DNA of 64,000 nucleotides, taken from assembly GCF_964194025.1 (NCBI RefSeq), contig NC_134468.1, forward strand, positions 40,920,001 to 40,984,000. Direction: 5' to 3'. Shown here one piece after another: positions 2,107-59,200 of the stretch. The notes beneath the pieces were generated by a model that worked only from the letters and a program-made list of their open reading frames with translations, did not search any database and was not told the origin of the DNA. Source of the stretch: Convolutriloba macropyga (taxonomy: Eukaryota). Positions within the stretch are counted from its first letter, which is position 1, and every line of letters starts with the position of its first letter. Position numbers and translations under genes: made by a program.

Positions 2107-5100
2107 AACAAGGATGCTCGTTAATGTGCGTTCGCACATGATGTTCCGACTCGAGCTCATCTACATTTTCGACTTAATTGTCAACCTAATGATGAGATAA
2201 TTAAAAATAGACGTTTGAATTTTAAAAAATCGTTACAAAATCGAACTAATAAAGGAGTTGCATAACACCATGTCTCAATACAGCGCTCATAAGGTCTGCC
2301 ATTAGAAAGACTACGAGAAAGTAAACAACAGAATAAGCAAAAACAAAAATTTTTCAGCGGATATGATAAAAAGAAGAGTAAAAGAAACACAAATAAGTTT
2401 TAAAAAAATTGGATGGAACTTCTAAAGGATGAGAAAATAAAGTTGACGAAAAGAACAAAAACTGAAAAGTAAAAAATTTTTTAGAACGAACAAAATCGTA
2501 AACTTTACTACTATTCACTATAAACTGAGTTCTTTGGCAACATCATTCATTGAATCCGCAATTAGAAGCCTATGCGACCAGTTAGCATTTTACGACTACA
2601 TGAAGAATTTAAAAAAAAAGGCAAAAACAGCAAATTTAAAAAAAATTGAGCGCGGAAAAGTGTCGAACGAAGCCAAGAAGAAAAAAAATAGTAAAAAATT
2701 TTGCAATCTCAAACAAATCTTTAGCAGCGATGGGGTTCTTCTAATTTTTAACAATATGACTTCAAAAAATCAACAAGTGTGATCAAATATAATTAAACCA
2801 CGAAATTTTTGAGAAAACCCGTTATATCAACTCCGTTAAATTGAATGGCTCTGACCGGAAGACAAAAAATCCACTACGTTATGCCTTAATGAGGAAGCAA
2901 GGATGTTTATCAATCATAAGTCAATAAAAGGACATCACAATAAGTCTTATGATTATGAAAACAACAACTAGTATATGAAAAAAAACGAAAATTCAGTAGA
3001 AAATTCACAGAAGAAAGTGTCGAAGCCATTTAAACCAAACGCGTTTCTCTGAACTCTTTACCTATGATTCTTTGGACGTGTTTCATAAGCCAATGTGAGC
3101 TATCAATATTAGGATTATGTGATAAGATTTCAAAAGGATCCAAAGTTACAGAAAATAATCCGAAACTTTTTTTTTGACATTATGAGAACTCGTGGCATCG
3201 AAGTCATAAAACAAGTATTTAGCAGATAAAACCGTTTCCTAGAGTATTTTTTGATGCAGTAAAAAAGAGAGTCGCCCTGTCATTACTGAGATTAACTTAT
3301 AGTTCATGAAAAATGTTTTAAGTGGTTAGTGTCCAAAAATGTTTTTTTTTTTAGTCTTAATAGCCACTAAATTCCATAGCTCTCAAAGGAAATCAATAAA
3401 TACGCAATGTTATGCCTCAAAAAGGAGATAAAGAAGTTTATCATTCTTAGGTAATCAATAAGAGGTCAAAATAAGTCTTATGATTATGAAAACAACAACA
3501 AAAGTAGGAAAAAACCAAAATTTCTGTGGAAATGTGCAGGAAAGTGTCAAAGCCATTTAAACCAAAAACTTTTCTCTGCAAACCTTATCAAGGATCCAAT
3601 GAACGCCTTTTTTAAGTCACTGAGAACTATCAATATTAAGTTAGGAAGGTAAAATTTCAAAGGAAACCAAAGTTACAAAAAAAAATTAGAAAATTTTTTT
3701 AAAAAATTTTGAAATCTCGAGTCCTCGAAGTCATAAAATCAGTATTTAGAAGACAAAACCACTCTCAAGATTCATCTTAGTTGCAATAGAAAAAAAGGAG
3801 ATCATATCATTACTGATACTGACATAAGGTTCGAGAAAACAAGTTTAAGGTTAGTTACTGTCCAAAAAAATTTCTAAAAAATAATTTATTAAAGTCTCAA
3901 CAGCCATTAAATTCCAAAGCTTTCAACGGAAGTAAAAAAAATACACTACAGAATTTATGCCCCAGAACAGGATGTTTATCATCAAAATTTTAGCAATAGG
4001 ACATTACAACAAGTCCTATGTTTATGAAAACGACGTTAAAAACCGGCAAAAACAAAAAAACAGCGGAAATTTGAGAAGAAAGTGTCGAAGTCATTTAAAC
4101 CATATTTTTTTCTCTGAAAAACTTCATCTAGGATCCATTGGAGGTCTTTATTAAGCCAATGGGGACTGCCAATACAATTAGGTAAGATTTCAAAAGGAAC
4201 CAATATTTAAAAATATCCAAATTTTTTTTTCGAAATTACGAAAACTCGTATTATCGAAGTCATTAAAGCATTAGTTAGCAGATAAAACCGCTTACCAGAT
4301 TAGTTTTGAATGCAGTACAAATGATTGAGGTCCTGTCTCCTGTCCTTACTGAAACTGACTTACTTTTCATGAAAATATGTTTAGAAATGTTTATTGTTCA
4401 AAAAAAAGTTTTCGAAATTTTTTTTAATCTTGACAGCCATTAGCTGTCCACTCAAAACACTATAATGGTTTACCTATTACACATTAGAAAGGAGATTGCA
4501 CTTTTAGTCAGCGAGTTTATGCCATTAGGCTCCCAAAATTTAGGTACATCTCAAAGAGAAAATCAATATTTCATTAAAAACTTCGAAAACTCAAAGTCGA
4601 AGACAAAAAAAAAACATGAGCGTTTCCTTGAAGCTGAACTTTTCGTTCATTGGTTATCATGTGACTGTAAATGAGATTTGTCATTGAAGGAAACTAGACA
4701 TGAAAAAGACTAGTCTCTAAGTGACTAAAAAGAACAATGAATATAGGAAAAGTTTCTAAAATAAACAGCTCTCAAATTGAATTCGTGTTTTTTTTATAGT
4801 AAATTTTTTCACGAGACCAGAAATAGCTATTTTATTGGTCTTCTGGTAACACAAAATTGTTTCATTTTTTAATGTGAAATGTAATTTTGAAATAATATTT
4901 TCTATAGAAAAGCCTTAAATTGAACAAAAATTACGCTAAAAGTGAACAAAATCATGCAAATATCACGTGTTCACACAAAACTTTAAACCTCAACAACTCC
5001 TCGAAATACACGAAATTCACAAAAATCTTTTCAATTTCAAATTCTACGCTGGACGAGCTTTTTAATGATACCACTCACATTTCTCTACGATGAATATATC

Positions 5101-15819: not shown

Positions 15820-16065
15820 TTCGAGCGCAAGAGCGCGCTTGAGTCTGATCAGAGGTAGATTTAAGCGCATTTGAGTCTGATCATAACCGATTTCTTGCAC
15901 AATTGATTCTGATCACAACCAGTTTTGAGCGCACTTGAGTCTGATCATAAACGGCTTCGAGCGCAACTGGGTCTGATCATAAGTGGCTTCAAGTGCAAGT
16001 GGGTCTGATCATAAACGACTTCAAGCGCAACAGGCTTTGATGCTAAGCGGTTTTAACGCAAGTGG
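15820..16065. repeat. 32-bp minisatellite (~7 units)
   Basis: TCTGATCA at 15844, 15876, 15908, 15940, 15972, 16004 (exact 32-bp period), with GAGCGCA cores. Confidence 0.85.
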
Positions 16066-45466: not shown

Positions 45467-46442
45467 CTTCAAGGTTGAGACCAATTTAGAAAACTAAGAC
45501 CGACATTGGTCAAAGCAACTTCACATTCTCCAATTAATTCCATTAACAATAATTATAATCAATGCCAGTAAACATTAAGGCAGACCAGTTAAGGGCTCCT
45601 TTTACAGCCGTAAAGTATAAAGAGTTAGAACTACTTATTTCTACGCGCGAAGTAGGCTCACCTATATCTCTCAGACTAACCGACTCAGTAAAACACTGAA
45701 GATATATTTCAATTATAACGGTGGTTTTAAAGAATTACACCGGAGTCAGAGATGCGCACATCGTGCAACTACTCTATTAGACTGACTATAGTTATTGGAG
45801 TTCTCTCTATATATAAGAGAATAGTCTCTTCTCAGTCTCTGATTAGATGAATTTATATATCCAGTATTTCTACTGCTACAACATCAGAGCCGCTAAACGT
45901 TTCCATAATTAGTCATTCATGTTTGAGGGCGCAAAACGCAAACAGTGCAATCAACGTTTCATAAAATGTTTTGTCCTGAGCATCATTGAGGGCGAAGGTT
46001 TCCATCAAACCTGCGGGACTGATTAAAATACGAGTTTTCCAAATTGTTCAACAAATCAAATGTTGAAAATTTGACGAATTGTTTGGCTCAATGCTTCATC
46101 TCATCTCTTTAAGAGCTGTTACTGTTAAAAAAGACAAAAGGATCAAAACAGCACTAAATTTTAAAAATCTGAACAAATTGATTGAAGAAATATGAAACAA
46201 CCGCCAAATGTGGCTAAGCTGGTTGATTAAACCTCTCATTCCTTAAAAGATTCGGCCTTTAAAAAAAACTACTTATGTTTCGACAATTGATCTCATATAT
46301 GTCCACATTCAATAAAACCGCCTACAGCCGATTAAACAAATATGCCTACAGTCGATAGGCCTACAGCCGATTAGGCATCTTGAAATTAGCATCTTATAGA
46401 ACGTCTCTTCCATCATTTGTATCTCAATTAACATTTTTCAAC

Positions 46443-46613
46443 TATTCGAGCTAGATAACGTCTAAGACTCGAACTACAGAAAACGGTAAAAGAACAATCT
46501 TTATTCAAGATAACAATACGTATAGTACTCTTTATTTTTCAACAATAAGCTCTTATTAGATCACACGTAACAATCCTCAGTTCGTTCGTACACATAAGAT
46601 ATCTAAAGTAACA
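46443..46613 (-). repeat. 3' LTR (171 bp shared with the 5' LTR)
   Basis: Direct repeat of 56120-56290; abuts TSD TCAAC at 46438-46442. Confidence 0.92.
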
Positions 46614-46815
46614 CTGGCGGCAAAAAAAGCTAGACAGGACCTATTTGGCCTTGCTTTGGCCTTAAAGTTAAACCATTCAATGCGTTTTGTTAGTCTAATA
46701 ATTTTATATCTAAGTCATCTTAGTCTAAATCGGGCTAGTTTAGCTGAAAACCGCTCTCAAACGGTTCGTTGCTCAAGGCACATGTATTAGAATACGGATT
46801 TTGCTTCGTACGGTT

Positions 46816-46888
46816 CGACATGGTTGGGGTTCGAACCACCGGTCTTTAGATTGAGAGTACAGTACTATACTAACTGCGCTATGGTTAC
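46816..46888 (-). ncRNA. tRNA-derived sequence with Pol III A and B boxes (degenerate, not a functional tRNA)
   Basis: A box TAGCGCAGTTAG (46870-46881) and B box GGTTCGAACCC (46827-46837) start 44 nt apart, the tRNA spacing; CT-CTC-AA sits at the anticodon-loop position; acceptor and anticodon stems pair poorly. Confidence 0.6.
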
Positions 46889-46938
46889 TTGTTTAGTTAC
46901 AAATACAATTTAAACTTAAACTCGTTCACATTTCTCGC

Positions 46939-49900
46939 TTAAATTTCTTGCTCGCTTACATTTGTGTTCACAACATCCTCCGGCCTCGAAAGTGGTGTAG
47001 CAAAAACTTGAATTAATTTAACAACGGGTCTGGCATAGTTACCGGGCTTAGTCCTTATTTCGGCGGAACGGGCAAAGCCGTCATCACCAAGGCGAAGTTT
47101 TTCGATACGTCCTAGAGGAAAATGGCCTCGGGGAGATGAGTCTTCGGCAAGTCATACCAGATCTCCTGTTTTTAGCTCATCTGAGGCAGATTTTGACCAT
47201 TTACTGCGGCGATTCAGAGCCGGTACGTACTCATCCAACCATCGTTTCCAAATTGAGTCGACATATTATTGGAAAAGGACGTACCGCTTTCTGTGATAAA
47301 AGTCTTCACTTTCAACTAATGAACCTAGGACGGAGCATACTAGGACGGAACCCGAGAAGGAAATGATTTGGAGTAATTGTGTCCATTTCTGGTGGATCAT
47401 TGCTTACAGAATTGAGCGGCCGGTTGTTGAGTGTCATTTCAGCTAGACAGAATGTTGTTTGAAGCACCTCGTCAGTCAATCGGGGGTTACCGAGAACAGC
47501 GTAGAATGTCCGGTTGACACTCCTTACATGAGTTCCCACGAACCACCATGATGAGGGGAAGATGGAGGGTTAAAAAGCCACTTAATACCTTTCTGTGACA
47601 TTTTGCTTGCAATCGTTCGCTGGTTTAAAGCTTTAAAACAAGCTGACAACTCTTTCTCTGCACCATTAAAAATTGTTCCATGGTCTGACCATAGAACTTG
47701 CGGTGTTCCTATTCGTGCGATGAATATTTCTATCCCCATAACACAAGAGCTGGTCTCCATAGAATTTACTACCTCAATATGGAGAGCTCGATTTGTAAGG
47801 AACGTTAAAAGGAACCCCCAGTGCTTCTCAATTGAACGCTGGACGGCGACATAGAACGGTCCGAAGTAACCTATCCCTGAGATGAAGAAAGGGGGATTAC
47901 CATGGGACAGACGCCCGACTGGTAGATCCGCCATCATTGGCTTCACTGTGTCTGCACTACGCTTCCGACATAAAATACAATTGTGCTTGATTGACGTCAA
48001 AGCGGGACGAAGCCTGATGATAGCAAAACAGCGCTGGATGAAAGCTCGTAAGAATTCAACACCTTCGTGGTGGTGTTCCTGGTGTTCCTTCAAAAGAAAC
48101 ATTTTTACTGCAGAATGGCGGCTATCTAAAATAATGGGGTGTTTGAGGTCATAGTCAGCCTCGACTAAACGTTTCAATCAGCCGGTTGATCTAATCAAGG
48201 CATTTGGGCCAATGAAGGGCGAAAGTGGTGCAATGCGACTCTTCTTGTTAATTTGTTTACCATCAAAAAGAAGTTTTTGTTCAACTGGGAATGATTCCAA
48301 CTGCATGAGAAACTGAAGCTTAGGTTCAGCTACTCGAAGTTCATCAGGATTGCAAATAATGCGGTCTGGTGTACGATATGAAGCATGTTTAGGGAGTATA
48401 CGGAGGAGATAGGCTGAAATTCGAACTAGCTTGCTGAAAGAACTGTACCTATCGAAGTCAAATATTTTTTCAGGTTGCGTTGTATTGACGGCAAACGCCA
48501 CTTCTGGCTCAGTTTCATCCTTTTGTGAATTGTACGTGCATGGTTTTGTTTGAAGGCTAATCCTTGTGCTAATCCTTTGAATCTCTAATCCTTGTGCTGG
48601 GTTGAAAAGGGAAGTGAGAAGTCAACAAAAAGCTTGGCCCTGTTAACCAACTGCTTGCTCGTAGGTTTTCAGCTGACATGCCTCTAGTTCCAGCATCTGC
48701 TGGGCTGTCTGCAATTGACACATGGAACCATTGATCAACTGTTGTTGACACTAGAATTTCAGAAACGCTGTTAGCAGCAAATATAGATTGCTTGTCAAGT
48801 GAACCCAGCCACTGTAGGACAGTGGCGCTATCAGTCCACGTAAAGACTCTGCTCAGAGGAATTGTTAGGGCTTTAGTTATGTCAACTTTCAATGGTGTCG
48901 CCAGGAGGACGGCCTGTAGTTCTAGTTTAGGAACTGTTAAACACTTCATGGGGGCAACCCTCGCTTTTCCAAGAACAAAAGCAATTTCGGTGCGTTCTTG
49001 ACTTTCTGATTTTACTTTGGCCCTGAGAAAGGCAATTGAACTAAAGACATCTTGAGAGCTGTCTCCGAAAACATGAAGCTCCAACTGATCGAAAGCTCCG
49101 GAGAAGAAACCTCTCGGGATACTTAGGTTGCATAATTTAGGCAGATCTGAACTCCAGATCTTGAACCTATTCATCATTTCAATGGGCAATGTGTTATCCC
49201 AGTTTTGGCCACTCAGTCTCCAAATGTCCTTCAACAAAAGTCGAGCAGTAACCGTGAATGGCGCGACCAACCCTATGGGGTCGAAGACTTTTGCTACTAG
49301 GCTGAGGACTAAGCGTTGCGTGACTTTGTTGCTTTCGTCGCACTTCGTGCCTCGACTAACGACTAAGGTATCCTTTCGATGTTCCCATTTTAGACTCAGA
49401 ACATGTGAAGAAGCTTCTTCATCAGAAACTAGAATAACTTTAGGTAGGCAAAATTGATAATTGTTTTCAATTTCATCGAGCAATTGTGGTGTGTTACTAA
49501 TAAATTTTGTTAGCTTGAGTCCTCCTAACTTCAATAACTCAACTAAATTTTTGGTTCTTCTTAGTGTTTCGTGTGGTGTTTCTAGAGAATCCAAATAGTC
49601 GTCCATATAGAACTTATCTACTACTGCTTGTGCAGCATCGGGGAACTTACGAATGTTGTCTTTTGCTGTTTTCTGAAGCGCAAAATTCGCGCAAGTTGGC
49701 AAACCCTTCGAACCGAATATATTTCGGCTATATTGCTATACCATCAATTCTGATGATGGGTCCTCCCGTCACAAAAAGTTGAGGCAGGGCTGGTCGGCAA
49801 GTGGGACGCCCACTTGAAGGAACATACCTTCGATATCGGCGGAGACGGCATACTTATGCTGACTAAAACGGATGAGAGTAAGGATGAGACGCTGGAGTAG

Positions 49901-52439
49901 GTCAGGGCAAGTTAGTAACGATTTGTTTAAGGAATTTCCGTGGAATTGTGCAGCGCCGTTCAATACCCTTCTAATTTTTCCAGGTTTATTTGGTTTATTA
50001 CAGGGTGATGTGGTAAGTACCACTCACGCTTCGATCGTTGACTGAGATCTTTTGGGTTTTCTATCCGAAAAACGTAGCCTTTCTCGACATCATCACTTAT
50101 ATTCTTTGAATATTTAGACCGAAGTTCTTCGTCCTTAGAAAGCCTTTTCTCGAGGGACTTTAGGTGCAAGAGCGCTGAGTAATAGTTGTTTGGTAAGTCG
50201 AGGTCGTCATTAGCCCAAAGCATTCCAACTTGATCTCTTTCACCATCGTGATCGTGCGTCGTCGTTTTCTCTAAGATTTCGACTGCTCTGCGGTCTGCTG
50301 ATGACCTTGAATTGACTTCTTTCATTGCACCGTAAGACTCCAATTCGTACCAGGTTCTTAACTGTTCTACTAAATCTTGTTCTGGCTCAATAATAGCTTT
50401 GAAGCAGGACGAAACGAAATTAGAGCTTGAAGGCAATGGACCACTCAACACCCATCCTATTGGTAGACGGACGGCAACGGGTGTGCCTTTTGATTCACTT
50501 TCAGGATACTTAATCGGGCGGATGGCGTGGTAAACGTCCTGGCCTAGAATCATTTCGATATTCGAATAGCTACACCGAACGGGATCGAGAGCAGTCAAGT
50601 ACGGGTAGGTTTCTTGCAAATGGGGAACGTCCACTATATCAGAACCAAAGTTTAAGTTCTCCCTAGTATATGGACTAGCTTGGCAGCATCTGAGAGATTC
50701 TGAGAATCTATTGCACATCTGAATTGTCCTATCCAGTCGTGCCACAAAAGTGGGTCTATATTGTAATTGGCAAGGTTCGATTTAGGCAAAAGATTCAGAC
50801 GACTAGAATTTATCGCGTCAGCCAAATCTTTCACATTGAATGACTGATTTGTTTGAGGTATTTGTGCTTCGGGGTGAGGCGATAAAGCCTTTGACGGGTA
50901 TATGGGCATCGTTGGTTGATGAGAAAGAGGCGTTGGAGCTTCATGTTTTTGCAAAGGTGCTGACGATGGTTTATTTGGCTGATTTACCATGATAGCTGTT
51001 GAGAAGGGGTTTTGATGATAAAAAGTTGTACCACCACTCGAAAACGATGCCACAGGTTGGATCATATTTGAGTTTGACATTTGTGCATTCACTTGGGAAA
51101 CTGACTGGGCTACAGTATCTAAAGTTGGCGTTTGCCAAAGCTTTAAATTTGGTAAGAGGTGGCTTGCCATTGGATAATAATTTTGACGATGGTTCGGAAT
51201 TGGGTTATGTCTACTGTGAACGTGTGCATTTTGATTCTGAGTGTTCAACGGTTGGCTTAAGACAACATTCGAGTTGCTTGTTTTAGCAACAACATTTTGA
51301 TTGTTTGTGCTCTGATTCGCAAAAATTGGGATGTTTGTGCGTGGACTTAGCATTATATTGTTTTTTATGTGCGCTGCTCGGGTCTGTTGTCGTTCAGAGT
51401 TATTGGCATCATTTGACGTCAGATTCGACGCTCCACCCTGGGCAGAAAGATGGTTAGGTCTAACGGCATTGTCCGAAAAATTAACAGCTACTTGAATGTT
51501 CTCATTGTCTGATTGCGGATTTTCCTCAGGTTACTGCGCGTCATTTTTTCCCAAAGAAAGGAAGTATGATACCCCTCTGAATGTTCGGACGAAGCTATCA
51601 TTAGTATTAGCCAATTGTGAATGATCGTGGAAACCTCCTAATGAAGCTTGCGGGACTTGAGTAATGTCTGTTAGGGATGGACCAATCTGCACGTCATTAT
51701 ATTGCAAACTTTCAATTGGTACATGATGTCTTGATCTGCTAAGGAGTGGATTGATCTCCATCTGTGGAGCACCAATTCCTGGATTAGCAGCTCCTAAATT
51801 TCGTGGTTCTTCTGAAGGCATTGTTTCGATCGCAGCAGGCATTGTATTATTGGGGTTTGTATTGTTTACACAATCAGTTACGCGCTCAACAGTATCGATA
51901 CGGTTTGAGGTCAGTTGCTCGTCAAATTTGTTACCGAGGCTTTCATTCGAGGAATCCATCGCCTCGAGCTCGTCCATTTTGGCTTCAAAAAAACTTTTTC
52001 TGTTTTCTTCGCTTATTGTGTTCAGCTCTAGTTGATGCTTTTGTTGAGCCCGTTTTAAATTATTTTCGCTTTCTTTTTCTACCTCTTCTCGATTGAAATT
52101 TGCTATTAGGCGTTTTTGACTTGATGCCATCGAATTCGTCTTTGTAACTCTACTCGACGTTTTCCTCTGAGTTTTGCTTGTACTTTGGGGTTCTGTTAGT
52201 GACTCTATGTATTGGCGCGCCCTTATCACATACTTATCATGTGTTTTGCTAGCTTCCTTCAAACAGAGTTCCAAGTCCTCGGTGATTTGTGCTTTGTTAG
52301 GGTGTCGGGCGGCTAGCTTCATTAACTGGTCATTTCGTGCAGCGCCTTCAATGGCTTCATCTATGCCTCTGTAAACTTCGTTTACGTTTAGTTAGGCTTT
52401 AGATCTTGCTTCAATCAATTTTGTTACTTGGGCTTCCAT
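46939..52439 (-). pseudogene. BEL/Pao gag-pol polyprotein, disrupted by stops, frameshifts and an internal deletion
   Basis: Gag start MEAQVTKLIEARSKA* at 52439; gag core LPKSNLANYNIDPLLWHDWIGQF; protease C-end ILGQDVY; RT WYLPHHPV, ADIEGMFLQV, FYMDDYLDS; RNase H VFGDSS, ARVAPMK..TVPKLELQA, WTDS; integrase H-H...CILC, GIGYFGPF, WSDHGTIF, SPHHGGSWE; C-terminal SPRGHFPLGRI...RPVVKL. Split over at least 8 ORF fragments. Confidence 0.93.
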
Positions 52440-52688
52440 CCTTGGAACTGTTTTAAAATTGACCTTCTTTTAGAATGAACACTTATCCACTCAACAATTT
52501 TAGAATACAATATTCAACTATGGGAATACAATTTGAGGGTTAACGCTTTCTCGAAGCGATCAGGGACGTAAGCGATGTGTTTCGTTTGTGAGATAATGTT
52601 TTAAGATTAACGAGGAAGGCCGACGAGCTCAATTGAACAGCACCGCCACTAACCAGGAGGAATTCACTACCGAGCTATAGCCTTGCAG

Positions 52689-53318
52689 TTAAGCTAGCCA
52701 CGGCTCGAGAGCGGAATCCTCCAAGAGAGCAGCAACCCTGTTAGCCCGAGCTTTTCGACGTCGCTGGTTCAGTCTCTTCAGACGCGTTTTCTTAATGAGA
52801 CGATTAAGGTCGAAGCTCTAGAATCTTACAATTGTTAGGGACTCGATCTCAAAAGAGAAAGTTGGATGCAATTGTGTGAATTCGTTTACAACTGCTGGGT
52901 CTTTTGCTTTGCGTTTTGAAGGCAAATCTTTCAAGACGTGGACTACAACGAAATCTGTTTGTTTAAGTGCTGCAAAGATATCGGGAGCTCCTTGCCGGGG
53001 GCAGTAGACCAGTGCGCTTATTTTGTTCTTAACAAAATTAAACTCCTTAATCAACCCTTGTGCGGATAATGGGCTATGATTGTTATTGTGATGAGGCGTT
53101 AAACTATTATTTATGGCGTCGTGCCAAATATTAACTTTGTCTGCGTGTGGGTACTCAACGCTTAACTTATACTGCACAGTTTTCTTCTGCTTGAAAGCTT
53201 TGAAGCTCAAGCCAGGCTCGGCAATGGAAGATTTTACGTGACGGGAGTACTGAGGTTCATGCAATTTGCCTATTGTTCGACTGAGGGAGCTAGGACTGAG
53301 GGAGCTAGAACAGAGCAT
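52689..53318 (-). pseudogene. Extra ORF upstream of gag, SGNH/GDSL esterase-like fold with basic C-terminal tail (one in-frame TAG at 52818-52820)
   Basis: Motif order LCSSSL, AEPGLS, IWHDAINNS, QLHP parallels SGNH blocks I, II, III and V. The frame continues past the TAG as SFDLNRLIKKTRLKRLNQRRRKARANR...WLA*. Fold assignment is by motif resemblance only. Confidence 0.55.
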
Positions 53319-53365
53319 TTGCTTTTATTTTCACTGGTCAAAAAGAGTTATTGACGATAACTTTG

Positions 53366-54312
53366 TTTTCGGTTAGTGAACACTAGGAAAATTTTCGGCC
53401 TATTGAACACACGAAAAAATTTTCAGCTAATTGAACACTAGGAAAGTTTTCGGCTAATTGAACACTCGAAAAGTTTTCGGCTAATTGAAAACTCGGAAAT
53501 TTTTTCGGCTTATGCACACTAAGAAATCTTTCGGCTAAATGAACACTCAAAAATTTTCGGCTAATTGAAGACTACGAAATTTTTCGGCTCAATAAACAAT
53601 CGAAAATTTTTCGGCTAATTGAACACTTGATAATTTTTCGGCTAATTGAACACTCGAAAAATTTTCGGCTAACTGAACACTTGAGAAATTTTCGGCTAAC
53701 TGAACACTCAAAAAAATTTCGGCTAATTGAACACTTGAGAATTTTTTGGCTAATTGAACACTCGAAAATTTTTCGGCTAATTGAAAACTCGAAAACTTTT
53801 CGGCTAATTGAATACTCGAAAACTTTTCGGCTAATTGAACACTTGAAAATTTTTCGGCTAATTGAAAACTCGAAAAAATTTCGGCTAATTGAACCTTTGA
53901 AAAATTTTCGGCTAATTGAGCACCTAAGGTTATTCGGCTAATTGAGCACTCAAATTTATTCGGCTAATTGAGCACCCAATTTATTCGGCTAATTGAGCAC
54001 CCAAAGTTATTCGGCTAATTGAGCACCCAAGTTATTCGGCTAATTGAGCACCCAAAGTTATTCGGCTAATTGAGCACCCAAAGTTTTTCGGCTAATTGAG
54101 CACTCAAAGTTATTCGGCTAATTGAGCAGCCAAGTTATTCGGCTAATTGAGCACCCAAAGTTATTCCGCTTATTCAGCACTCAAAGTTGATTGGATAATT
54201 GAGCACTCAAAGTTATTCGGCAAGTTGAGCACCCAAGTTATTCGGCTAATTGAGCACTCAAAGTTGTTCGGCTAATTGAGCACGCAAGTGATTCGGCTAA
54301 TTGAGCACTCAA
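53366..54312. repeat. 25-27-bp minisatellite (~36 units) in the retrotransposon 5' leader
   Basis: Units TTTTCGGCTAATTGAACACTCGAAAAA to ~53915, then GTTATTCGGCTAATTGAGCACCCAAA. Confidence 0.95.
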
Positions 54313-54489
54313 TTTTTTTTTCGATTACTTGTGTCTAAGTTGGGGGTCCGCCGCCAGTGTGGATATAGGTAGCACCAGTTAGAAATAGAGTTTACTTAGA
54401 AGTTTAGAATGTTGAAGACTAAGGTTTTGCCTAACAGTTTTTTTTCCACACTTCCCTGCCCCAAATAACACCGGTCGAACAAACGTCCA

Positions 54490-56060
54490 ATCCACTGTGT
54501 GCCAGAAGACCAAAAACTGTCACTGCCTTAGCCCCTTTTCGCTACAACACCAATAGCAGTCACTAACCCGAGCTCTGTGCACCAGAAGTACTAATAGTAG
54601 TCACTGACCCAGCCTCTGTGCGCCAGAACTTCCAATAGTAGTCACTGACCCAGCCTCTGTGCACCAGAAGTACCAATAGTAGTCACAGACCGAGCCTCTG
54701 TGCGCCAGAAGTTCCAATAATTGCCACTGAACCAGACTCTGCGTGCCAAAAGTACCAATAGTAGTCACAGACCGAGCCTCTGTGCGCCAGAAGTTCCAAT
54801 AATTGCCACTGAGCCAGACTCTGCGTGCCAAAAGTACCAATAGTATTCCCTGACCGAGCCTCTGTGCGCCAGTATTTCCAATAGTTGCCACTGAGCCAGC
54901 CTCTGTGTGCCAGAAGTTCCAAGAATCGCCACTGAACCAGACTACGCGTGCCAAAAGTACCAATAGCAGTCACTAACCCGAGCTCTGTGCACCAGAAGTA
55001 CTAATAGTAGTCACTGACCCAGCCTCTGTGCGCCAGAACTTCCAATAGTAATCACTGACCCGGCCTCTTTGCACCAGAAGTACCAATAGTAGTCACAGAC
55101 CGAGCCTCTGTGCGCCAGAAGTTCCAATAATTGCCACTGAACCAGACTCTGCGTGCCAAAAGTACCAATAGTATTCACTGACCGAGCCTCTGTGCGCCAG
55201 TAGTTCCAATAGTTGCCACTGAGCCAGCCTCTGTGTGCCAGAAGTTCCAAGAATCGCCACTGAACCAGCCTCTGTGTGCCAGAAGGTCCAATAGTAGTCA
55301 CTGACCCAGCTTCTGTGTACCAGAAGTACCAATAGTAGTCACTGACCGAGCCTCTGTGCGCCAGAAGTTCCAATAGTTGCCACTGAACCAGTCTCTGTGT
55401 GCCAAAAGTACCAATAGTAGTCACTGACCGAGCCTTTGTGCGCCAGAAGTTCTAATCGTTGCCACTGAACCAACCTCTGTGTGCCAAAAGTACCAATAGT
55501 AGTCACTGACCGAGCCTCTGAGCGCCAGAAGTTCCAATAGTTGCCACTGAACCAGCCTCTGTGTGCCAAAAGTACCAATAGTAGTCACTGACCGAGCCTC
55601 TGTGCGCCAGAAGTTCCAATAGTTGCCACTAAACCAGCCTCTGTGTGCCAAATGTGTCAATAGTAGTCACTGCCCGAGCCTTTGTGCGCCAGAAGTTCCA
55701 ATAGTTGCCACTGAATCAGCCTCTGTGTGCCAAAAGTACCAATAGTAGTCACTGACCGAGCCCCTGTGCGCCAGAAGTTCCAATAGTTGCCACTGAACCA
55801 GCCTCTGTGTGCCAAAAGTACCAATAGTAGTCACTGACCGAGCCTCTGTGCGCCAGAAGTTCCAATAGTTGCCACTGAACCAGCCTCTGTGTGCAGTACC
55901 AATAGTAGTCACTGACCGAGCCTCTGTGCGCCAGAAGTTCCAATAGTTGCCATTGAACCAGCCTCTGTGTGCCAAAAGAACCATTAGTAGTCACTGACCC
56001 AGCCTCTGTGCGCCAGAAGTTCCAATAGTTGTCACTAAACCAGCCTCTTTGCGCCGGAAG
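54490..56060. repeat. 41-bp minisatellite (~38 units, 82-bp dimer) in the retrotransposon 5' leader
   Basis: Alternating CCAATAGTAGTCACTGACCGAGCCTCTGTGCGCCAGAAGTT and CCAATAGTTGCCACTGAACCAGCCTCTGTGTGCCAAAAGTA; a variant block at 54551 recurs at 54961 (410-bp period). Confidence 0.95.
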
Positions 56061-56098
56061 ATGACGCAAATCGGACGATGTAATCCTTAACCCGATTA

Positions 56099-56116
56099 CT
56101 TTCACTTAGTGGACCA
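56099..56116 (-). promoter_or_regulatory. Primer-binding site, possibly tRNA-Tyr type
   Basis: TGGTCCACTAAGTGAAAG begins 3 nt inside the 5' LTR boundary. TGG-T-CC implies a primer with A73 and G72, the eukaryotic tRNA-Tyr identity. The remainder does not match a tRNA I recognise. Confidence 0.55.
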
Positions 56117-56119
56117 AAA

Positions 56120-56290
56120 TATTCGAGCTAGATATCGTCTAAGACTCGAACTACAGAAAACGGTAAAAGAACAATCTTTATTCAAGATAACAATACGTAT
56201 AGTACTCTATATTTTTCAACAATAGGCTCTTATTAGATCACACATAACAATCCTCAGTTCGTTCGTACACATAAGATATCTAAAGTAACA
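56120..56290 (-). repeat. 5' LTR (171 bp)
   Basis: Minus strand reads TGTTACTTT...CTCGAATA; abuts the TSD; differs from 46443-46613 at 4 positions. Confidence 0.92.
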
Positions 56291-59200
56291 TCAACCAATT
56301 AACACTAGTACACTAGTTAACATGCTAAAAATGTTTTGCCCTATAAATGTTTTCAAGGTCTTGCTTTTTTTGTTTTCGTACAATCATCGCTCTTGCTATG
56401 TGAAACTCATCATAATATCAATTACAACAACAGCGAGGCGAGATCACTTGAATCGCATGCAGGCACTCTCGTCACAAACTCGGCACATAAAGCAGCGAGA
56501 TTGACATTGAATACAAATATGTCTGTACAATCCAAACCCACAACGCGAGCGAGCTAATAGCAAAGCGCATCTTCAACTTAAAGAACGCAGCTTACAGAAA
56601 ATGACCCATTGTTTACCTTTAAAAAAATTCTGCCAAAAATACCCATTTTTGATGTTGTTTCTAAAATATTTCAAAACAAGCCTCATGTAGCCTCTCGGAC
56701 AAAGAAAGGTGCGGCACTGAAAAAATACAAGATAGATAGTTAGAAAATAACGAAAGTTAGGTACAAAATAACAATTATTTACAAATATCGAAAGAGATCA
56801 TATTTCATTTACATTTATTGTGATTTGATCATATGATCAATAGAATGCTATCCCTGCAGCGCTATTGAAACGGCTCTAAAATCATAACTTTTACAAAGAA
56901 CTTTGAACAACATAAAACGTGTACTGCCATGAAACAAAGAATTCAAAATGATATCGGAGTACCAGTATAAAAAATACGAAGCAATATATTTCTTCGCCAC
57001 TAAAGACAGATTTTCCAAGTATATAAACCGAGAAATATATGACTAAGCTACTGATCATGGTTAGTTGAGTTGTTGTCGAGATAATGTCTAGTGAGCAAAA
57101 CATCTTCTCACCAAGAGCCCCTAGGAGTATTTAACGCTCCGTCGTCAATTTCTCATTCTCAAGGTGAGAAACAATAAATTGTAACTAGCTCATTTTCTTT
57201 TGAAAGTCTTGCATAGTCTGTTACGGCGATAGCCGAGGTCTAATCTCGGCTATTACTGCGTTGATTTACATGCTGAACAGTGGAGGTAAAATCAAATCAA
57301 TATTTCGCAAATTTCCGGCTAGCTGAGCCTCAGGAAAACATGGGCACTCTGACAGTACCATCCTTTTCACAAATTTTCCTCTATTTGCATTATCGGAATT
57401 TCTTTAAATCGAACAATTCTGTAACCTTGACAAACTAAGGGCTAAAAATTTGTTGAAAACGGCTCAGAAACAAATGAAAACCCCCATAAGGTCCTCAGTT
57501 GCACTTATTTGGCCTAACGGGGTCTTTTTAGCTTCTGGCATCGTTTCATATCATTTTTCAACGATCCCGTGAAAAGGGGCCAAAAGCAATTCTGAAAGTG
57601 TGACACGTTACAACATTTTTAAAAGTTTAAGTTTTCACTCAAAATTTTTTGAAAGAATGCTTTTGACTTGGGAATCAGTTTGCACGTGTTACCCGAGTCT
57701 TTTGCAAGACTTGCAAGATTGTAAGACTTTTAATCAGACTTCCCTAATAACCGAAAATGAAATAAGTCTTGCATTGAAACATGCGTAGTTTTTATTTAGA
57801 CTTAAAATTTGGTAATGGGAAATGTCGTGAGGGTTTTTCCTAAACATTTTTTTTTCTATCAATTATCAACATACAACCAATGTTAGACGGGTCTTTTTGA
57901 GCATTTGAGATTTCAAGAGTCCAATTATGGGGCACTGTGGGGCGATTGCCCACAATTATGACCGGATAGGGTCACGTCTGATTTCGCCATCGGTAAACGT
58001 TTTGTTCGGACTCGAAAATAACAGGAGATCTTGAATTGCGGTAAAAACTTGATTTTCCTGGAAGCGCAGAAGAAAATGCTGCAAAATATGAACGTTTAAA
58101 AAAATCTTGATCGAAAATAGTCAGAACAGTTTTATTTGCAACTTAATAAAGAGAATACAAATATCATGCGTACTCGCAAACTTGGCAAAGGTTGTATTTT
58201 GATTTGAAAAAAACTTTTAGTGCCATTTGAATCGAAACCAAAAGTTCATGAATTGTGAAAAACTGAAAAAAAATTTTATGTTCGGCGATTGGTGTAGTAA
58301 GCCTTTAGAAACTCATATTTCAATTCGATTTCTAAATTGATTCGTTTTGGATTCATCAAATCAAATATCTTATTTAGAGATAATACGCATAGTATGACAA
58401 AAATACAACGAAAACCTTTGCTGAATATTTGATAAAAGTTACAGCGTAAAAACTCCTGGTTTCAATGCACTCCAAACTCAACTGTTCCAAATCAGCCGCG
58501 ACCATAAATAGGATTTGATAAAGGAAAAAGTATACATAATACCAAAACTCTCAGGATGCAACATCTAAATGCAAGATATTTGCATTTTGCTAAAAATCTT
58601 GTTGCCACAAAAAAGTCTGCGCAATTTTGCTTTTTTTTCGAGCGAAAAGCTGACCAGCCCGCAAAACATTTTTTTTCACTACAATCTCTGCCAAGTGAAC
58701 TGAAATTTGTTAACATTATTCGGCATTAAGTAAATGCGAAATAATATACAAAAAATGTCAGGCAAATTTTCGTTCTGAATTTGTAATACTTTCAACTCAA
58801 AGACCTGTTTCTTTGCAACTAGCAGATCTCCTCATTAGTTTTATTACTTGGAGCCACTCCAAGCAGCCAACAAGATTAGCACAATCAGTAGTAATAAAAA
58901 ACATATCACGATAGCAAAACGTCGAAAATATAGAGAAGAAAAAGTTCAACTATTACGAAATTTTTTTTTAACTTTTTGCAGAATATTCAAAAAATTTGCT
59001 ACGTTTACAAATAATGCCCATATAGTTCTTTTTTCTGTATTATATAATCAGTATGATTTAAAAAACAAGTAATGATTAAAAAACGAAATAGGCATGGCGA
59101 CTTGGTAGGGGGAGTCAGTATTTGTCTATATTAAATGGTTTTGTTCTATCAGAAATAAGAAAACCGAAAAGCCAGCCAATAAGCAAGAAAAAAAATAAGT

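Follow-up and report, generated by a model that had tools for sequence, protein, structure and literature searches.

A BEL/Pao retrotransposon lineage of Convolutriloba macropyga with an SGNH-fold accessory gene and a tRNA-derived module in U3

The BEL/Pao long terminal repeat (LTR) retrotransposons include the clades Pao, BEL, Tas, Suzu, Sinbad, Dan and Flow. A decayed BEL/Pao element lies on the minus strand at positions 46443-56290 of a 64,000-nt stretch of Convolutriloba macropyga contig NC_134468.1 (GCF_964194025.1, 40,920,001-40,984,000), here termed the window, in whose positions all coordinates are given unless a locus is named. The element raises the question of whether (i) an extra open reading frame (ORF), (ii) two tandem leader arrays and (iii) a tRNA-like cassette are traits of a lineage or secondary insertions into one copy. 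The initial annotation took them to form an undescribed system that travels as one unit. The element is a defective copy of a real BEL/Pao lineage, which has an unusual accessory gene under selection and a tRNA-derived module in the U3 part of its LTR, gained in steps.

The element, its siblings and its relatives

Siblings of the window element were sought in the species' own 1.18-Gb genome with the LTR end as query; 40 matches of 100 candidates were scored and 12 loci were compared. Family A refers to the window element and its siblings, whereas B, C and D are three further BEL families of the genome. The primer-binding site (PBS), the 41-bp array, the spacer, the 26/27-bp array, the extra ORF and BEL pol follow one another in identical order in all 12 siblings. 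The layout is thus a family trait, since arrays and extra ORF are shared by 12/12 siblings, and secondary insertion of the modules into one copy is ruled out. The cassette, which like the other modules was to be checked in independent insertions, is present in 10/10 siblings whose stretch reached the 3' LTR and in 9/9 sibling 5' LTRs. These elements span 8.5-16.5 kb and carry gag-pol. Eight siblings were compared from end to end: the two LTRs of a copy share 92.8-97.6% identity, and six copies have clear target-site duplications (TSDs) of 5-6 bp that differ from one another. The features of the window copy are as follows.

46438-46442, no strand: TSD, left copy, 5 bp (TCAAC on the plus strand, identical at both element ends)
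46443-46975, minus strand: 3' LTR at its true extent, 533 bp (~50 bp shorter than in siblings); sibling 5' flanks match from 46975
46500-46505, minus strand: AATAAA near the LTR end, a likely poly(A) signal, at the same position in families A and B
46614-46633, minus strand: pyrimidine run and CAG just ahead of an internal TGTTAC, near-identical in families A and B
46702-46708, minus strand: TATA-like box (TATAAAA) at LTR position ~267, downstream of the cassette, at the same position in A and B
46815-46888, minus strand: tRNA-derived cassette in U3, with A box 46870-46881, B box 46828-46837 and degraded stems
46976-46987, minus strand: polypurine tract, a purine run abutting the LTR start in window and siblings
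46939-52439, minus strand: BEL/Pao gag-pol interrupted by stops and frameshifts, recognised by its open pieces, PF05380, YMDD and HHCC-like motifs, and siblings
52818-53318, minus strand: accessory ORF of predicted SGNH/GDSL-hydrolase fold, stand-alone, upstream of gag (fold match, siblings)
53366-54283, minus strand: 26/27-bp leader array, 34.7 copies, with an invariant core containing TAATTG (Tandem Repeats Finder, TRF)
54284-54549, minus strand: spacer between the arrays, found in 12/12 siblings
54550-56060, minus strand: 41-bp (82-bp dimer) leader array, 37 copies (TRF, siblings)
56106-56116, minus strand: PBS for host tRNA-Tyr, 9/11 bases matching
56120-56290, minus strand: 5' LTR, last 171 bp only, without cassette or TATA-like box (sibling comparison)
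56291-56295, no strand: TSD, right copy (TCAAC)

The assignment to BEL/Pao made in the initial annotation is confirmed by a match of the window pol to the Pao domain PF05380 (E 1.5e-37), and the BEL gag domain DUF1759 is found in a related-family copy (E 4.7e-14). The element has the BEL/Pao order of gag, protease (PR), reverse transcriptase (RT), RNase H (RH) and integrase (IN) between LTRs, together with PBS, polypurine tract and TSD. The window copy is dead: its gag-pol is split into nine open pieces by stops and frameshifts, and ~1.15 kb of gag near 50680 is gone compared to siblings. The absent gag segment carries zinc knuckles in 4/4 siblings checked, one or two per sibling by the pattern CX2CX3-4HX4C, which detects no third knuckle in these four.

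The LTRs were initially described as TSD-bounded and 171 bp long, with the cassette placed between pol and the LTR. The TSD and the 171-bp end repeat stand (167/171 positions identical between the two ends of the window element), but in 8/8 siblings compared end to end the repeats at the two ends agree over 565-591 bp, which rules out a 171-bp LTR with an internal cassette. The family A LTR, as seen in siblings, is ~585 bp, begins directly behind the polypurine tract and holds the cassette, which is therefore part of U3 in both LTRs. In the window copy, the 3' LTR has a 50-bp gap relative to siblings, and the 5' LTR has lost its first ~410 bp and is TSD-bounded nonetheless. Among the family A copies compared, a 171-bp 5' LTR occurs in the window alone; a shortened 5' LTR is also noted in one family B copy. 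The window 5' LTR begins at an internal TGTTAC, the hexamer that opens family D LTRs, which suggests integration at an internal att-like site. The pyrimidine run and CAG at 46614-46633 resemble a 3' splice site or trans-splice acceptor, an internal att-like site or a relic LTR end, and a branch-point-like CTAAC is conserved ahead of the pyrimidine run, CAG and TGTTAC but lost in the window copy. In certain loci (L157, L158, L168 and L179-L180), LTR and leader are tandemly repeated 2-3.6 kb apart, without coding parts between the LTRs.

Beyond family A, ten distant BEL loci (41-74% identity), drawn from the lower part of 150 listed ORF matches, all carry the extra ORF upstream of BEL pol pieces and add the three further families. 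The ORF is present in four BEL families, the cassette in three and the arrays in two. Family B has the cassette and both types of leader array (a 26-bp array, and an 81-bp array replacing the 41-bp array), family C has the cassette without arrays, and family D has neither. The RT tree, built from this genome's copies only, has the form ((A,B),C),D with (A,B) at 99/99 and fits a stepwise, nested gain of modules. Thus, the modules do not travel as one unit, as had been proposed. In an unrelated BEL copy of the genome, the 5' part was not found.

The ORF is also carried by LINE-type elements (long interspersed nuclear elements). Ten loci of a more distant ORF member (from 140 matches) have no BEL genes; seven have long ORFs downstream, and the four of these that were translated encode an endonuclease/RT of LINE type, confirmed by Pfam for one. 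In one translated locus a PHD-like ORF, recognised by eye, lies between the accessory ORF and the endonuclease/RT ORF. These carriers presumably belong to the CR1/L2 group. In L137-L154 and in L125, L128 and L132 the accessory ORF is a separate first ORF, followed by the PHD-like and then the endonuclease/RT ORF, the latter two separated at several loci by a single in-frame stop that may be read through. Of 14 metagenome loci, two have a LINE-like pair of long ORFs, one has a BEL-like gag start, and one has a PIF1 helicase and GIY-YIG domain upstream of the accessory ORF. Locus L134, in which a PIF1-helicase/GIY-YIG ORF (2-2425) precedes a distant accessory ORF (3768-4175), is possibly a Helitron-like element.

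The accessory open reading frame

The extra ORF that had been noted ahead of gag-pol holds up at 52818-53318. It has 207 codons in siblings and 166 in the window, where the first motif is lost and an early stop is present. A first look at the species' own genome gives 2248 candidates, and a public library contains 394 clusters of the family at 50% identity, with no named protein in the ten clusters looked up. A longer, fused form was not seen among 8000 candidates, which is weak evidence. A splice acceptor ahead of the ORF in the window was rejected as a feature, as it is not conserved in siblings.

A structure model built from 92 natural relatives (pLDDT 94.5) finds its best Foldseek match among SGNH/GDSL hydrolases (E 5.9e-4). 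The VIA structural match reaches a best Z of 11.0 (root-mean-square deviation, rmsd, 3.8; 155 residues aligned), nearly all of the top 50 structural matches have the SGNH/GDSL fold, and a further structural comparison agrees. On this model, the protein folds as an SGNH/GDSL hydrolase. The conserved residues, scored over natural relatives that include proteins 25-41% identical to the first, are Ser8 (81/89), Gly34 (79/92), His64 (87/92), Asn68 (76/92), Asn69 (87/92) and His149 (87/92); their assignment to the Ser, Gly, Asn and His blocks follows motif order and secondary structure, not atom-level superposition. The last 40 residues are rich in Lys and Arg (32% vs 15%). The family A and B proteins share 74-80% amino-acid identity while synonymous sites are saturated (proportion of synonymous differences, pS, 0.81-0.83), from which it follows that the ORF is kept by purifying selection.

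Primer, U3 cassette and leader arrays

Over 11 bases, the PBS is complementary to the 3' terminus of a host tRNA-Tyr whose gene contains an intron and lies in a tandem cluster, with 11/11 bases matching in five of eight siblings. Because this host tRNA-Tyr pairs with the PBS, a priming role of the cassette is rejected. The tandem cluster at G000:C11:1424000-1552000 comprises more than 70 tRNA-Tyr-like genes, which contain introns and have the unusual acceptor stem that the PBS matches; further tRNA types are likewise in tandem clusters in the genome. The canonical tRNA-Tyr end pattern gave no match in the first pattern search. In sibling L004 (G000:C1:37689707) the PBS resembles the commoner tRNA-Tyr end rather than the clustered variant, and this copy is possibly primed by another tRNA-Tyr allele. 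The PBS of family D (L053-L062) varies between copies, and 2/5 family D copies sit within trinucleotide microsatellites.

The cassette was initially read as a tRNA-like Pol III (RNA polymerase III) unit. Its A and B boxes at tRNA spacing are borne out (one such pair in the window, none in 100 shuffles), but neither ARAGORN nor Rfam calls a tRNA in the window cassette, and relaxed ARAGORN settings return only noise. In families A and B, the A and B boxes are canonical with a spacing of 43-44 bp, and an A/B-box-like pair is also found in family C. On the Rfam tRNA model the family B cassette scores 20 bits, under the cut-off of 29 bits, and that of family C has no match. Between A and B, similarity is ~65% in a 100-column block that covers most of the cassette, compared to 86-87% in the U3 behind it; the TATA-like box sits in a block that is 86% identical. 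Folding z-scores are -0.25 (A), +1.16 (B) and -1.76 (C). The family C cassette ends in CCA, followed by a T9 run, and has a closed multi-stem fold; that of family B ends in CCA, and that of family A has no CCA end. The first T runs occur at 135, 143 and 86 nt from the cassette start in A, B and C, respectively (T4 in A), so close behind that Pol III could not make the genomic RNA. Scores for a parent tRNA spread over Lys, Gln, Arg and Ala within a partial tRNA set.

Of the cassette matches, 12 of the 51 in family A and 12 of the 74 in family C were inspected; all 24 loci lie in LTRs, some of them solo LTRs, and none is a free short interspersed nuclear element (SINE) or terminal-repeat retrotransposon in miniature (TRIM). 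Among the 51 family A cassette matches, there are no LTR pairs less than 2.5 kb apart. This picture suits a retained promoter or TFIIIC site better than a structured RNA. Beside a family B copy, L043 (G000:C12) has a 402-bp tandem repeat with a different tRNA-like A/B-box sequence, unrelated to the LTR cassette.

Both leader arrays of the initial annotation are recovered by TRF. The spacer between them also exists and is ~180 bp, as had been stated, when degenerate units are counted with the arrays; TRF bounds give 266 bp. The 41-bp array ranges from 8 to 183 copies among siblings, and the 26/27-bp array from 18 to 66 units. The 183 copies (7.5 kb) are reached in one sibling, L015-L016 (G000:C1:37673150-37690150), and in sibling L026-L027 the array-spacer-array block is present three times. 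Families A and B share 84% identity in the 26/27-bp array, whose core columns are invariant in 26 and 21 units of the respective arrays, in units selected by that core. The TAATTG of the core presumably resembles a homeodomain site. The 26/27-bp units fold slightly better than shuffles (z -1.9 to -2.4), in a type of score that tandem repeats inflate. Contig depth hinted at a free satellite made of the 26-bp unit, which was rejected: of 14 loci among the first 100 listed (from 399 exact dimers in the assembly), 13 adjoin ORF or LTR matches. Elsewhere, the window holds a 32-bp array (15832-16031), and a very high-copy repeat, by contig depth, is directly left of the element (45500-45900).

Origin of the modules and comparison with known elements

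The favoured explanation, held with some confidence, is a BEL/Pao lineage that gained an SGNH gene, a tRNA-derived promoter in U3 and leader arrays in steps. The earliest gain would be the stand-alone gene of ~207 aa upstream of gag, most likely from the host pool of LINE-type esterase-fold ORFs, with a LINE as the probable donor. The protein would be a separate product that acts as a slow Ser-His esterase or lipid binder, like the esterase of LINE ORF1 proteins (ORF1p), and its basic tail may tie the element RNA or particle to membranes, as the retroviral matrix domain does. A type-2 Pol III promoter derived from a tRNA would have been added later in U3, ~130 bp upstream of the TATA-like box, where its boxes most likely recruit TFIIIC/Pol III, holding the LTR promoter open or shielding it and yielding a short RNA as by-product. 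The tandem arrays would be the latest gain, expanding and shrinking by slippage, and are probably repeated factor-binding sites. The element would be transcribed by host Pol II from the TATA-like box and primed by tRNA-Tyr.

A number of observations weigh against this explanation. Pfam, PDB-sequence and Atlas searches with the ORF were blank and gave no sequence link to known transposon esterases. The triad Asp (DxxH) is absent (position 146 is in most cases R, K or S), and the sequence of block III is HDxINN instead of HxGxND; with no Asp three residues ahead of His149 and this altered block, catalysis is uncertain, although a distant acid, the conserved D65 or E155, could stand in. The non-catalytic OSK domain of Oskar also matches the model (Z 9.0, rmsd 3.7, 145 residues aligned). 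Family D is the most numerous in the ranked lists, so neither the cassette nor the arrays are needed for success. The branch joining C to (A,B) has just 85/74, and the LTRs of C and A/B cannot be aligned, which leaves room for two separate gains of the cassette. A quick tree of 16 rows unites the six BEL-borne ORFs from this genome (SH-aLRT 96); a single clade of BEL-borne ORFs with the two nearest metagenome rows is compatible with the data (approximately unbiased test, p-AU 0.455) but unproven, the SGNH tree is midpoint-rooted with long branches, and a 43-row quick tree did not settle these branches. The protein also departs from the published transposon esterases in being stand-alone, without a coiled coil and on an LTR element.

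The ORF may instead encode a non-catalytic, OSK-like SGNH protein that binds RNA and serves in packaging, localisation or anti-silencing, with the arrays as possible binding sites. The OSK domain binds RNA. It is called non-catalytic in the part of the ZfL2-1 study used here (PMC3905857). The missing triad Asp, the strongly basic tail, the Oskar match and the slightly better folding of the 26/27-bp units speak for this alternative. This alternative is doubtful, however, as (i) Ser, Gly, Asn and His are conserved even in proteins 25-41% identical to the first, which fits retained chemistry, (ii) the ORF occurs without these arrays in families C and D and on the LINE-type elements, and (iii) the z-scores of the units are inflated. 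A somewhat stronger case, still on the unlikely side, is that the cassette and arrays are passengers, the former a SINE head or tRNA fragment caught in an ancestral LTR and the latter functionless products of slippage. The wide variation in array copy number, the absence of both modules from family D and the lower conservation of the cassette than of the U3 behind it are all expected of passengers, and Kojima proposes SINE insertion into LTRs as an origin in the available text (PMC10886601). Yet the A and B boxes have stayed canonical at constant spacing in A and B where synonymous sites are saturated, a similar pair persists in family C, the 26/27-bp array is well conserved between A and B, and no free cassette was found among the 24 loci inspected.

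It is improbable that the cassette makes a functional small Pol III RNA (e.g., a decoy, tRNA mimic or small-RNA precursor). The CCA ends of families B and C and the T9 run and closed fold of the latter would suit such an RNA, for which the U3 Pol III miRNA cassette of foamy virus offers a precedent in the portion of the source cited (PMC7693620). By contrast, family A has neither the CCA nor a stable fold, the z-scores of B and C are not better than +1.16 and -1.76, Rfam tRNA scores are under the cut-off or absent, and the cassette interior diverges faster than the flanking U3. Self-priming, in which reverse transcription would start from the tRNA-like RNA of the element's LTR, is very improbable and was rejected: the end of the family C cassette can pair with ~10 bases of the PBS if one bulge is allowed, but host tRNA-Tyr pairs with 11 and no bulge, the family B end pairs with only five and the family A end with none, and no such pairing was found in Helenus in the available sections of Kojima's report (PMC10886601).

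A wider proposition, offered as speculation of rather low probability, is that the Pfam-invisible family of stand-alone SGNH-fold proteins is an accessory module shared in this host group by LINEs, BEL/Pao elements and a helicase-bearing element, acting by a dyad of Ser and His or as a tether to RNA or membranes, and that the tRNA promoter captured in U3 works as a Pol III unit of coding BEL elements. If true, the Helenus type would for the first time include protein-coding LTR elements, from which such TRIMs might have arisen. The families with and without cassette or arrays in one genome form a natural comparison for whether a tRNA-derived promoter is of help to a coding LTR element; published work expects such promoters mainly in short non-coding elements. 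LINEs, Penelope-like elements and LTR elements of rotifers were the known carriers of the esterase accessory module, to which BEL/Pao is now added; there, its position upstream of gag and its small, single-domain protein are new; the latter is a simple object for asking what retroelement esterases do. In genome annotation, the ~2,200 candidate copies would count as unknown host genes.

Each part of the layout has a precedent in other mobile elements. To call the whole an undescribed system was too strong, given that esterase-fold ORFs and tRNA-like LTRs are published in the portions of the literature available (PMC3905857, PMC5408684, PMC10886601). For BEL/Pao, no report of an SGNH ORF or tRNA-like U3 was found in the literature searched, with Repbase, Dfam, subscription papers and supplements outside the search; 'esterase' and 'lipase' are absent from the main text of PMC3118150. 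The ICTV (International Committee on Taxonomy of Viruses) profile of the Belpaoviridae includes gag, pol and env-like genes only and tRNA-Arg or -Gly primers (PMC8742986). The elements described here are like those of the profile in LTR length (0.2-1.2 kb), PBS, polypurine tract, PR-RT-RH-IN order, PF05380, DUF1759 and a size of ~10 kb, but differ in the SGNH-fold ORF before gag, the tRNA-Tyr primer, the tRNA-derived promoter in U3 and the two leader arrays (PMC8742986).

The accessory protein is similar to the ORF1p esterases of LINEs (ZfL2-1; also CR1, RTEX and Penelope) in its SGNH fold, location upstream of pol, Ser/Gly/Asn/His residues and basic motifs, as far as the accessible part of that study describes them (PMC3905857). 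The H64/N68 pair parallels the transposon-specific H191/N195, with a His four residues before the Asn, a correspondence of H64 to ZfL2-1 H191 by spacing alone; the ZfL2-1 structure is not among the fold or PDB matches listed, and an equivalent of its S228 was not located. In the same source, the ZfL2-1 esterase binds liposomes and has slow turnover, and the published esterase ORF1ps have a coiled coil ahead of the domain, unlike the protein described here, which also has no triad Asp and no detectable sequence match (PMC3905857).

Among LTR elements, a parallel is offered by the Vesta elements of bdelloid rotifers, which are gypsy-like. They carry a GDSL ORF3 shared with the Penelope-like Athena/Terminon elements, such that, as here, an SGNH/GDSL accessory ORF on an LTR element is common to unrelated retroelement classes of one host; the rotifer ORF3 has intact catalytic residues and is of a non-BEL lineage in the text available, whereas the ORF here is upstream of gag in BEL/Pao (PMC5408684). 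Ogre/Burro elements likewise combine extra ORFs with tandem repeats inside an LTR element, but are of the Gypsy superfamily and, in the part of the report used, have extra ORFs of unknown or other function (PMC6431247).

The U3 cassette resembles the tRNA-derived LTR sequences of the Helenus, Cassandra and Ajax TRIMs, which keep A and B boxes in a degraded structure and are not the primer, and 'not a few' Repbase LTRs are stated to contain tRNA-like parts in the available text (PMC10886601). The Helenus (TRIMp3) trait of A and B boxes inside both LTRs is found here, while that of a short, non-coding, non-autonomous element is not. Helenus, Cassandra and Ajax are non-coding, 311-1263 bp long, and thought to be transcribed by Pol III and moved by Gypsy or Copia, in contrast to the 9-11 kb protein-coding BEL elements, whose cassette is followed by a TATA-like box and T runs (PMC10886601, in part). 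The foamy virus unit is a dumbbell pri-miRNA of demonstrated function, unlike the predicted, tRNA-derived unit of non-conserved structure described here; in the portion of the source drawn upon, it shares with that unit the placement of a Pol III module in U3 of a coding LTR element (PMC7693620).

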